Program-made: the position numbers and the translations under genes
Shown: piece after piece, positions 14,073 through 64,000 of the stretch
Numbering within the stretch: the first letter of the stretch is position 1
How the letters are laid out: each line of letters opens with the position of its first letter
The notes under the pieces: model-generated
The model's input: only the letters and a program-made list of their open reading frames with translations
Told to the model about the DNA's origin: nothing
The model's database searches: none
Source: Escherichia coli O127:H6 str. E2348/69
GTDB lineage: Bacteria; Pseudomonadota; Gammaproteobacteria; Enterobacterales; Enterobacteriaceae
Reading direction: 5' to 3' (one strand)
NCBI RefSeq assembly: GCF_000026545.1
Contig: NC_011601.1
DNA length: 64,000 bases

Positions 14073-16624
<2,552 letters not shown>

Positions 16625-61971: not shown

Positions 61972-63389
61972 TGAGCCAGTCACTGTTTAGCCAACCGTTG
62001 AACGTTATTAACGTCGGTATCGCCATGTTTAGCGATGATCTGAAAAAGCAGCATGTAGAAGTGACCCAACTCGACTGGACGCCGCCGGGGCAGGGCAATA
62101 TGCAGGTGGTGCAGGCACTGGACAACATTGCCGATTCGCCGCTGGCGGACAAAATCACCGCCGCTAACCAGCAGGCGCTGGAGCGCATTATCCAGTCGCA
62201 TCCGGTGCTGATTGGTTTTGATCAGGCGATTAACGTGGTGCCGGGCATGACGCCGAAAACCATTCTTCACGCCGGGCCGCCGGTCACCTGGGAAAAAATG
62301 TGCGGCGCGATGAAAGGCGCGGTCACCGGAGCGCTGGTGTTTGAAGGACTGGCGAAAGATCTCGACGAGGCGGCTGAGCTGGCGGCTTCCGGGGAGATCA
62401 CCTTCTCGCCGTGCCACGAGCACGACTGTGTGGGATCGATGGCGGGCGTCACCTCGGCCTCGATGTTTATGCACATCGTGAAAAACAAAACCTATGGCAA
62501 CGTCGCTTATACCAACATGAGCGAGCAGATGGCGAAGATTTTGCGTATGGGCGCTAACGACCAGAGCGTGATCGACCGCCTCAACTGGATGCGCGATGTG
62601 CAGGGACCCATGCTGCGCGACGCGATGAAAATTATCGGCGAAATCGATCTGCGCTTAATGCTGGCGCAGGCGCTGCATATGGGCGATGAATGCCATAACC
62701 GCAATAACGCCGGGACGACGCTGCTGATTCAGGCGCTGACGCCGGGGATTATTCAGGCAGGTTATTCCGTCGAGCAACAGCGCGAAGTGTTTGAGTTTGT
62801 CGCCAGCAGCGACTACTTCTCCGGCCCGACGTGGATGGCGATGTGTAAAGCGGCGATGGATGCGGCGCACGGCATCGAATACAGCACCGTGGTGACCACC
62901 ATGGCGCGTAACGGCGTCGAGTTCGGCCTGCGGGTCAGCGGCCTGCCGGGGCAGTGGTTTACCGGCCCGGCGCAGCAGGTCATCGGCCCGATGTTTGCCG
63001 GTTATAAGCCGGAAGATTCAGGGCTGGATATTGGCGACAGCGCCATCACCGAAACCTACGGTATCGGCGGATTTGCGATGGCGACCGCGCCCGCGATCGT
63101 CGCGCTGGTGGGTGGCACGGTGGAAGAGGCTATCGATTTCTCCCGTCAGATGCGTGAAATCACCCTTAGCGAAAACCCCAACGTCACCATTCCGCTGCTC
63201 GGTTTTATGGGCGTTCCGTCGGCAATCGACATCACCCGCGTGGGTAGCAGCGGCATTCTGCCAGTGATCAACACCGCCATCGCCCATAAAGATGCGGGCG
63301 TCGGCATGATTGGCGCGGGCATTGTGCATCCACCCTTCGCCTGCTTCGAGAAAGCCATTCTCGGCTGGTGCGAACGTTACGGCGTCTGA
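61971..63389 (+). CDS. yahG: DUF1116 protein YahG
   Basis: 472 aa; start overlaps the yahF stop. Confidence 0.8.
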   Translation: MSQSLFSQPLNVINVGIAMFSDDLKKQHVEVTQLDWTPPGQGNMQVVQALDNIADSPLADKITAANQQALERIIQSHPVLIGFDQAINVVPGMTPKTILHAGPPVTWEKMCGAMKGAVTGALVFEGLAKDLDEAAELAASGEITFSPCHEHDCVGSMAGVTSASMFMHIVKNKTYGNVAYTNMSEQMAKILRMGANDQSVIDRLNWMRDVQGPMLRDAMKIIGEIDLRLMLAQALHMGDECHNRNNAGTTLLIQALTPGIIQAGYSVEQQREVFEFVASSDYFSGPTWMAMCKAAMDAAHGIEYSTVVTTMARNGVEFGLRVSGLPGQWFTGPAQQVIGPMFAGYKPEDSGLDIGDSAITETYGIGGFAMATAPAIVALVGGTVEEAIDFSRQMREITLSENPNVTIPLLGFMGVPSAIDITRVGSSGILPVINTAIAHKDAGVGMIGAGIVHPPFACFEKAILGWCERYGV

Positions 63390-63402
63390 GTTACATGTTT
63401 AT

Positions 63403-63690
63403 GCCGGATGCGACATGAATGTCTTATCCGGCCTACGAATGGCGCGGAAATCTGTAGGCCTGATAAGCGTGGCGATTCAGGCATTGGCCACCACAGCCGG
63501 ATGCGGCGTGAACGCCTTATCCGGCCTACGAGTGGCGCAAGAATCTGTAGGCCTGATAAGCGTAGCGCATCAGGCATTGGTCACCACAGCCGGATGCGGC
63601 GTGAACGCCTTATCCGGCCTACGAATGGCACGGGAATCTGTAGGCCTGATAAGCATAGCGCATCAGGCAGTCTGGCGTTGGTCATAACCC
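63403..63690. repeat. Cluster of three REP elements (BIME-type intergenic repeat)
   Basis: Three ~99-bp tandem units, each containing GCCGGATGCGGCGTGAACGCCTTATCCGGCCTACG and CTGTAGGCCTGATAAGCGTAGCGCATCAGGC palindromic REP sequences. Confidence 0.9.
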
Positions 63691-63718
63691 CATCACCCTC
63701 TGTCGCGGACATAACAAC

Positions 63719-64000
63719 ATGAAAGAACTTGTGGTCGTTGCCATTGGTGGCAACAGCATTATCAAAGATAACGCCAGCCAGTCGATTGAGCATCAGGCGG
63801 AGGCGGTGAAAGCCGTGGCCGATACGGTGCTGGAAATGCTGGCTTCCGATTACGACATTGTGCTGACCCACGGCAACGGGCCGCAGGTCGGGCTGGATTT
63901 ACGCCGCGCGGAGATTGCCCACGAGCGCGAAGGGCTGCCCTTAACGCCGCTAGCGAACTGTGTGGCGGATACGCAAGGTGGCATTGGCTATCTGATCCAG
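63719..64000 (+). CDS. yahI: Carbamate kinase-like protein YahI (5' part; continues beyond window)
   Basis: 'MKELVVVAIGGNSIIKDNAS...VLTHGNGPQVG' amino-acid kinase family N-terminus. Confidence 0.85.
   Translation, partial: MKELVVVAIGGNSIIKDNASQSIEHQAEAVKAVADTVLEMLASDYDIVLTHGNGPQVGLDLRRAEIAHEREGLPLTPLANCVADTQGGIGYLIQ

Follow-up and report, generated by a model that had tools for sequence, protein, structure and literature searches.

A three-unit REP array between yahG and yahI of Escherichia coli E2348/69 is the K-12 element REP23, an atypical BIME and a candidate RNA hairpin buffer

What fills the spacer between yahG and yahI, and what might it do there? We analyzed a 64,000-nucleotide (nt) stretch, called the window below, of the chromosome of Escherichia coli O127:H6 str. 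E2348/69 (assembly GCF_000026545.1, contig NC_011601.1), in which these two genes are separated by repeats that an initial annotation, made from the sequence alone, had named a triple array of repetitive extragenic palindromic (REP) sequences, or bacterial interspersed mosaic element (BIME). We found that three tandem units occupy the spacer, that they are the element catalogued in E. coli K-12 as REP23, which the phantom gene yahH overlies, and that they can be classed as an atypical BIME. By analogy with other REPs, the array probably acts as an RNA hairpin buffer between its neighbors.

The annotation of the window, read from RefSeq record NZ_CP059840.2 (E2348/69 chromosome, reverse strand), with which the 901 bases around the array agree at 100% identity, places yahG 5' and yahI 3' of the array, both on the + strand. 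The spacer between the yahG stop codon and the yahI ATG at 63719 is 329 nt long, and the array of three tandem units (63403-63681) fills most of it. The array is extragenic: it begins 13 nt (63390-63402) past the yahG stop codon, and the end of its last REP (63668) lies 50 nt before the yahI ATG. A tandem array of three units is present, well beyond what chance would give. Tandem Repeats Finder reported a single array (63403-63669; period 93, 2.9 copies, 90% matches, indels 0, score 436), and a repeat search returned three copies of 93 nt, all in register, that start at 63403, 63496, and 63589. The REP tail motif TTATCMGGCCTAC occurred six times on alternating strands, compared with 0.07 occurrences expected in shuffled sequence, and was absent from the rest of the 64-kb window. 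E. coli REPs are defined as imperfect palindromes of 29 to 37 nt that fit a y, z1, or z2 consensus and keep GTAG/CTAC at their foot. A REP-consensus search, the check named beforehand, confirmed that the repeats are REPs, with Y and Z consensus sequences, GTAG/CTAC tails, and alternating orientation, and each REP is predicted to fold as a hairpin. The dimensions first given need adjustment. Units of ~99 bp had been claimed, but the measured period is 93 nt, and it is Y/Z2 arrays such as REP325 that have units of ~100 nt; the end had been put at 63690, which overshoots the last REP and runs into unique spacer. The description of the units as near-identical was right in that the repeats are real but generous in its wording, as pairwise identities of the 80-nt unit cores were 86%, 88%, and 94%.

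Read on the + strand, each unit consists of a 34-nt Y REP (GCCGGATGCGGCGTGAACGCCTTATCCGGCCTAC), a 17-nt tail-to-tail linker (GAATGGCGCGGGAATCT and variants), an inverted 29-nt Z REP (GTAGGCCTGATAAGCGTAGCGCATCAGGC), and a 13-nt head-to-head linker (ATTGGYCACCACA). This BIME layout (Y>, 17 nt, <Z1, 13 nt), present three times, gives six REPs. Y copies 2 and 3 are 1 nt off the published Y query, and Z copy 2 matches the published short Z query at 29/29 nt. The array and its borders comprise the following features.

63387-63389, + strand: yahG stop codon, TGA
63403-63436, + strand: Y REP copy 1, 34 nt, with the CTAC tail at its 3' end and a variant upper stem; predicted hairpin of -17.9 kcal/mol
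63437-63453, + strand: tail-to-tail linker copy 1, 17 nt, S-like, GAATGGCGCGGAAATCT; identical to its REP325 counterpart at 12/17 positions
63454-63482, - strand: Z1 REP copy 1, 29 nt, inverted, slightly degenerate; exact ATCAGGCCTAC at 63454-63464 (- strand)
63483-63495, + strand: head-to-head linker copy 1, 13 nt, ATTGGCCACCACA
63496-63529, + strand: Y REP copy 2, consensus; predicted hairpin of -21.3 kcal/mol
63530-63546, + strand: tail-to-tail linker copy 2, 17 nt
63547-63575, - strand: Z1 REP copy 2, consensus, GCCTGATGCGCTACGCTTATCAGGCCTAC; IS621 target at 63547-63557 (- strand)
63576-63588, + strand: head-to-head linker copy 2, 13 nt, ATTGGTCACCACA
63589-63622, + strand: Y REP copy 3, consensus
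63623-63639, + strand: tail-to-tail linker copy 3, 17 nt
63640-63668, - strand: Z1 REP copy 3, one mismatch to consensus; IS621 target at 63640-63650 (- strand)
63669-63681, + strand: right flanking motif AGTCTGGCGTTGG, common to all BIME-bearing alleles and like the REP325 head-to-head linker
63682-63718, + strand: unique 37-nt yahI leader, TCATAACCCCATCACCCTCTGTCGCGGACATAACAAC

To which class of BIME does the array belong? Published lengths are 35 nt for y, 29 nt for z1, and 37 nt for z2 (Corneloup et al., PMC8266576), and the K-12 elements termed y/z2 in the literature, the 5' BIME of the REPtron and REP325, both carry a 36-nt Z form. The Z REPs of the array, at 29 nt, are therefore z1, and these lengths together with the K-12 z2 elements rule out a reading of the Z REPs as z2 and of the array as a canonical BIME-2. 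As defined by Ton-Hoang et al. (PMC3333891), BIME-1 has one y/z1 pair and a long L linker, often with a site for IHF; in BIME-2, y/z2 pairs with short S linkers are repeated in tandem; and an atypical BIME is a multi-copy chimera of BIME-1 and BIME-2 motifs (any mix of y, z1, z2, L, S, s, l, and r). The array shares the y and z1 REP types of BIME-1 (RIP/RIB), but BIME-1 is single-copy with a long L linker, whereas here there are three tandem pairs with 17-nt linkers and no match to the IHF consensus WATCAANNNNTTR inside the array, which rules out BIME-1. It has the tandem copies, a short S-like linker, and the strain-variable number of BIME-2 (three copies here and zero to five in E. coli) but, with its 29-nt Z, lacks the y plus z2 composition. 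As one defining feature of each canonical class fails, the array can be assigned by elimination, and by the definition in PMC3333891, to the atypical BIMEs, with a BIME-2-like layout and BIME-1-type REPs. The unit measures 93 nt here and 100 nt in REP325 because z1 is 7 nt shorter than z2, a difference that may also lie behind the earlier estimate of ~99 bp.

The array is already known. REP23/yahH of K-12 MG1655 has the same flanking genes, Y and Z1 REPs, linkers, and right-hand junction, with four units (a 421-nt spacer) in K-12, five in O157:H7, and three in E2348/69; relative to K-12 REP23, the B2-type allele has lineage-specific substitutions in its first Y and its first Z1. In the words of the EcoCyc curators, yahH is "filled with REP23 sites" (PMC11551758), and the five-unit version in enterohemorrhagic E. 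coli (EHEC) was reported as a BIME matching REP23 (Neuhaus et al., PMC4765031). Copy-number variation of BIMEs between strains has been described since the 1990s.

What, then, might this known element do between yahG and yahI? The genes lie in the same direction in the order yahD-yahE-fdrA(yahF)-yahG-[spacer]-yahI-yahJ and encode AllH-family, FdrA, and AllG/YlbE-family proteins, a carbamate kinase, and an amidohydrolase, current product names that suggest a paralogue of the genes for oxamate carbamoyltransferase and carbamate kinase. A + strand scan of the spacer found no sigma-70-like promoter and no intrinsic terminator, so read-through from yahG is the simplest assumption. Arguing from better-studied arrays, we favor with moderate confidence the explanation that the BIME serves as an RNA hairpin buffer. 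In a yahDEFG-yahIJ transcript, it would fold as six stable hairpins, or as long Y:Z1 hairpins, which would block 3'-to-5' exonucleases to protect the upstream yahEFG message and would attenuate read-through into yahI and yahJ, partly via Rho. The net effect would favor expression of the upstream genes, as has been measured in the yjdM-yjdN operon with its Y/Z2 array REP325. In addition, the first hairpin, 13 nt past the yahG stop codon, may stall terminating ribosomes and lower YahG output.

Multiple observations on other REPs are consistent with such a role. According to a 2026 preprint, removal of REP325 raises expression of the downstream gene yjdN ~8- to 10-fold and lowers that of the upstream gene yjdM, REP325 stabilizes the yjdM message, and attenuation into yjdN depends partly on Rho. 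The same text reports that, genome-wide, tandem gene pairs split by REPs have higher upstream/downstream expression ratios, with large context-dependent scatter. Where a REP follows a stop codon by fewer than 16 nt, terminating ribosomes are reported to stall and the upstream gene to be translated less (Liang et al. 2015, summarized in PMC12306157); the distance is 13 nt in E2348/69 and K-12 and exceeds this range in alleles with a 23-nt junction. The statement in the initial annotation that such arrays can stabilize or attenuate transcripts is correct for the class. REP stabilizers of the malE-malF type and BIME attenuators (Newbury 1987 and Espeli 2001, as cited in later papers) are likewise intercistronic hairpins in a one-direction gene cluster, although an effect at yahG-yahI is argued from likeness to them.

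The predicted folds are stable. Folding gave -17.9 to -21.3 kcal/mol for the Y REPs (z -4.9 to -6.2) and -10.2 to -11.5 kcal/mol for the Z1 REPs (z -2.4 to -3.5), a neighboring Y:Z1 pair can instead form a single long hairpin of -36.8 to -38.5 kcal/mol, and a window spanning the whole spacer (63380-63725) gave -141.9 kcal/mol (z -3.5). In the first Y REP, the upper stem GGCG/CGCC is changed to GACA/TGTC by two compensatory pair changes that keep the predicted hairpin. This variant is common to the three 3-unit alleles that we compared (E2348/69, Nissle 1917, and RM14723), and no single-mutant intermediate of the stem was seen among the alleles inspected.

How constant is the array among strains? 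The comparison of unit number that had been suggested at the outset showed zero to five units. Searching with the two coding flanks only, we found the locus in 5,048/5,426 complete E. coli genomes, and an evenly spaced sample with 57 usable genomes gave the following distribution, in which spacer length changes in steps of 93 nt.

0 units, spacer of ~95 nt: 9 genomes in the sample
1 unit, spacer of 142-153 nt: 26 genomes in the sample
2 units, spacer of 235-246 nt: 4 genomes in the sample
3 units, spacer of 329 nt: 1 genome in the sample
4 units, spacer of 421 nt: 14 genomes in the sample
5 units, spacer of 514 nt: 3 genomes in the sample

The three-unit allele occurs in E2348/69, other O127:H6 strains, Nissle 1917, CFT073, ABU 83972, ATCC 25922, and others, at least 40 records altogether. 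The three 3-unit alleles compared differ in patches, with one unit bearing the linker and Z1 variants of its neighbor; such unit-to-unit mosaicism is the signature of unequal exchange or conversion between units. The array would thus be resized by unequal recombination or slippage between units. BIME-bearing alleles have two types of left junction, with 13 or 23 nt from the stop codon to the first REP. The alleles without REPs, about one in six of the sampled genomes, carry another hairpin, CCCTTCTCCC-TTCT-GGGGAGAGGGG (for example, in strains S1-SRL-01-C and 550). This hairpin is similar to the CCCTCTCCC/GGGAGAGGG palindromes that Kluyvera and Klebsiella carry at this place.

Outside E. coli, the sequences in this spacer change, and a predicted hairpin is present in every orthologous spacer examined. 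A degenerate pattern for the yahI start found 65 loci, 17 of which had a yahG homologue directly upstream, and we folded 19 spacers (the window, 2 further E. coli alleles, and 16 loci of other species) from seven genera (Escherichia, Pseudocitrobacter, Kluyvera, Klebsiella, Raoultella, Citrobacter, and Enterobacter) against mononucleotide shuffles. Y/Z1 REPs were at the same site in E. albertii, E. whittamii, Pseudocitrobacter, and one further Escherichia (a truncated contig in which yahG was not detected), and the Pseudocitrobacter spacer contained Z2 as well as Y/Z1 REPs. The spacers of Kluyvera and Klebsiella spallanzanii carried CCCTCTCCC/GGGAGAGGG and GGGTGAGGG palindromes, two Kluyvera species had a different inverted REP pair, and those of Raoultella, Citrobacter, and Enterobacter had single GC-rich hairpins, some followed by T-rich tracts. 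A GC-rich hairpin, from one or another of several unrelated families, was predicted in 19/19 spacers, with z from -1.6 to -9.2 for the variable part and -3 or lower in 17/19. The conserved property is accordingly a predicted hairpin at the intercistronic site, with the REP array as the Escherichia version. Such a pattern would arise equally if a structured element were under selection or if a permissive spacer that bears hairpins were targeted again and again.

One part of the spacer does keep its sequence. The last ~35 nt before the yahI ATG (CATCACCYTCTGYASYGGA... to ...CATCACCCTCTGTCGCGGACATAACAAC) are conserved from Escherichia to Kluyvera, Klebsiella, Raoultella, Citrobacter, and Enterobacter, and the yahI leader (63682-63718) is kept in 14 other loci, whereas the rest of the spacer is wholly replaced between genera. 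The leader could be a translation-initiation or regulator-binding element. Its TCTG...CGGA can pair as a stem of 4 bp, within which the likely Shine-Dalgarno sequence, GGA, falls. In E. albertii NBRC 107761, ~360 nt upstream of yahI, a tandem duplication takes in one Y/Z1 unit and the final 44 nt of yahG, a BIME-associated duplication of coding sequence that is joined at the head-to-head linker.

Further properties of the array bear on the weighing of its role: its likeness to REP325 and naRNA4, and the open reading frames (ORFs) that cross it. REP325 (yjdM-yjdN), a canonical BIME-2, likewise has tandem alternating Y/Z REPs between co-oriented genes, and in both arrays the head-to-head linker is 13 nt and the tail-to-tail linker 17 nt, with the identity listed above. 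REP325, however, has a 36-37-nt z2, a 100-nt unit, and 6 units with 12 hairpins, compared with a 29-nt z1, a 93-nt unit, and 3 units with 6 hairpins here. The RNA naRNA4 (RF02564) was defined on one Z2-l-Y unit of REP325 and was the only significant Rfam family match of the array, with two matches above the gathering score of 59.5 bits.

63550-63619, - strand: naRNA4 match to a head-to-head Z1-Y pair, 71.8 bits
63457-63526, - strand: naRNA4 match to a head-to-head Z1-Y pair, 59.9 bits

The + strand, in which yahG and yahI are read, gave naRNA4 scores of 55.9 and 45.8 bits, under the gathering score. The model amounts to one Y and one Z REP, so these matches speak for REP-pair identity rather than naRNA function.

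The ORFs follow from the period. As 93 nt equals 31 codons, frames stay open across units and encode a 31-residue repeat; long + strand ORFs run across the array at 63310-63687 and 63408-63722, there are several on the - strand too, and RefSeq annotates one as a coding sequence.

63415-63687, + strand: "hypothetical protein" WP_001101850.1, 90 amino acids, a 31-residue repeat, counterpart of K-12 yahH, wholly REP sequence

Its ATG lies within the loop of the first Y REP and has no Shine-Dalgarno sequence, and the REP ORFs matched no Pfam or NCBIfam family. A match of the REP ORF to SidA was dismissed as sub-threshold, with zero passing stretches. ORF length, frame, and start vary by strain and unit number, K-12 and EHEC are shifted in frame by a 1-nt difference in a linker, and the zero- and one-unit alleles have no such ORF. 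Related entries are named "protein YahH" in four- and five-unit strains, and in K-12 MG1655 the ORF yahH (b0322) overlies the four-unit spacer. Although yahH was dropped from annotation for its repeat structure (Neuhaus et al., PMC4765031), RefSeq, through the Prokaryotic Genome Annotation Pipeline (PGAP), still lists the 90-residue protein, and yahH elsewhere, wholly of REP sequence, a warning for users of the annotation. The ORF at 63415-63687 is likely repeat-generated. The initial annotation had called these ORFs spurious, which agrees with the start in a REP loop, the lack of a family, and the absence from zero- and one-unit alleles; on the other side, one ribosome-profiling paper claims translation.

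Several observations weigh against a hairpin buffer at this site. Every functional statement is carried over from other REPs by analogy, yahG and yahI are taken to be co-transcribed, and the array is inverted relative to REP325 when both are read in the sense of transcription. The 2026 preprint describes REP effects as context-dependent, states that terminal REPs do not generally lengthen mRNA half-lives, and reports partial Rho dependence only with the full 12 hairpins of REP325, compared with 6 here. REP-less natural alleles are common (~9/57 sampled genomes), so the REPs themselves are dispensable. The same alleles, and the range of zero to five units among natural isolates, would be expected if the array were a selfish or neutral repeat, with no function specific to the locus, in a permissive spacer, drifting in size by recombination with yah expression unaffected, and we regard this as a possibility to be taken seriously, if clearly not the likeliest. 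REPs are regarded as non-autonomous mobile elements (PMC3333891), the left junctions at 13 or 23 nt suggest repeated independent remodeling, and the array is a breakpoint of deletions or rearrangements in BL21(RP), PSS-15, and ECCWS199 and of the duplication in E. albertii. A neutral repeat accounts less well for the predicted GC-rich hairpin in all 19 folded spacers, that of the REP-less E. coli allele included (z -1.6 to -9.2), for the compensatory substitutions that keep the first Y stem, or for the genome-wide bias toward the upstream gene that the preprint reports for REPs between tandem genes.

Translation of the REP-spanning ORF (yahH, called X002 in EHEC), to give a functional repeat protein or to gate Rho-dependent attenuation, seems very improbable to us. 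Ribosome footprints on X002 in EHEC EDL933 (reads per kilobase per million mapped reads, RPKM, 56; coverage 0.61) led the authors to class it as "real" (PMC4765031), two long + strand ORFs cross the array, ATG codons 6 to 26 nt past the yahG stop codon make reinitiation conceivable, and a BIME that is translated reportedly loses its attenuation by Rho (Espeli 2001, cited in PMC4765031). The same paper, however, lists no mass-spectrometry peptides for X002 (PMC4765031), and footprints on a structured repeat of ~500 copies would be prone to multi-mapping and nuclease-protection artifacts. EcoCyc regards yahH as filled with REP23 sites (PMC11551758), and the strain-dependent length, frame, and start of the ORF, its absence from zero- and one-unit alleles, its lack of a Pfam or NCBIfam family, and an annotated start in a hairpin loop without a Shine-Dalgarno sequence all argue for a by-product of the repeats. 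Slightly less probable still is a main role at the level of DNA or the nucleoid, with the array as a cruciform, a DNA gyrase or HU site, or the source of a naRNA4-like RNA that organizes the chromosome. Such a role could draw on the - strand naRNA4 matches (71.8 and 59.9 bits), the published naRNA4/HU model, and reports that BIMEs bind gyrase, Pol I, and IHF and insulate supercoiling (PMC3333891). But gyrase cleavage was characterized on Y/Z2 BIME-2 (PMC3333891) and the Z of this array is z1, the IHF consensus is absent, and the strand co-transcribed with yahG falls under the Rfam threshold. Moreover, the 2026 re-examination found neither measurable nucleoid compaction nor REP-REP contacts for REP325/naRNA4 and concluded that REP325 does not compact the nucleoid and acts locally on its operon. 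The hairpin buffer between yahG and yahI remains the explanation that we prefer.

An extension of the buffer, which we rate as speculative and rather unlikely, is that structured RNA is required at this site whatever its family and that REP number is a heritable, strain-specific dial of the yahEFG:yahIJ ratio, with translation of the REP ORF perhaps antagonizing Rho-dependent attenuation. If true, the dial would set the oxamate-carbamoyltransferase-like genes (yahEFG) against the carbamate kinase and amidohydrolase genes (yahIJ). In either case, the natural series of alleles with zero to five units offers a convenient system for relating REP number to operon polarity.

Could a resident transposase have changed the size of the array? 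In REPIN/RAYT (TnpAREP) systems, as here, inverted REP doublets with GTAG/CTAC tails can fold as one long hairpin. K-12 has a single REP-associated transposase gene, rayT (tnpAREP), between yafL and lfhA/fhiA, and E2348/69, generally classed as phylogroup B2, has hicA-hicB at that position (NZ_CP059840.2 3907294-3907921), flanked by yafL and the flhA/fhiA pseudogene and just beyond the start of the window. Replacement by hicAB is one of two configurations of tnpAREP loss, mostly in B1 strains (Ton-Hoang et al. 2012, PMC3333891). Because hicAB occupies the K-12 rayT locus, a share of a REP transposase in resizing is unlikely; unlike the elements of REPIN/RAYT systems, the array is probably not mobilized by a resident transposase, and, as far as the rayT locus goes, size changes in this lineage would best be attributed to host recombination or replication slippage. 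Rearrangements also end within the array, which is a demonstrated breakpoint for deletions and duplications. In BL21(RP), a truncated phage tail-tip gene is fused inside a tail-to-tail linker; in PSS-15, the ykgR side has been brought by a large deletion up to the GTAG of the last Z1 REP; and in ECCWS199, a deletion runs from inside a Z1 REP into yahI.

The array had also been proposed as a natural target of IS621-type (IS110-family) insertion sequences (IS). The natural IS621 target is the 11-nt ATCAGGCCTAC, with a CT core, and 144/173 insertion sites mapped in the E. coli genome were in REPs (Durrant et al., PMC11208160). Exact ATCAGGCCTAC occurs three times in the window, once per Z1 REP and always on the - strand, at the positions given above, so at the level of sequence the proposal holds for the Z1 REPs, each of which would be a ready IS621 insertion site in DNA. 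The three Y REPs carry ATCCGGCCTAC, whose sole mismatch to ATCAGGCCTAC is C at position 4, where tolerance is documented for G only (ATCGGGCCTAC; PMC11208160). In the three of ~68 disrupted-locus genomes that we inspected, all of them deletions or rearrangements, no IS was inserted in the array, a check short of a systematic search, and the supplements of Durrant 2024 do not mention the yahG-yahI locus. Three exact landing sites for the IS621 bridge recombinase nevertheless make the locus relevant as an off-target or a natural target. The window also contains an IS110-family element of its own: a 358-residue ORF at 15216-16292 (+ strand), annotated in RefSeq as "IS110-like element ISEc21 family transposase", lies between two IS3-family/integrase-core pseudogene fragments, apparently one interrupted remnant, among integrase fragments beside a tRNA-Thr gene (NZ_CP059840.2 3890096-3893310). 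As it is apparently set within an IS3-type remnant, this element, unlike IS621, is not in a REP.

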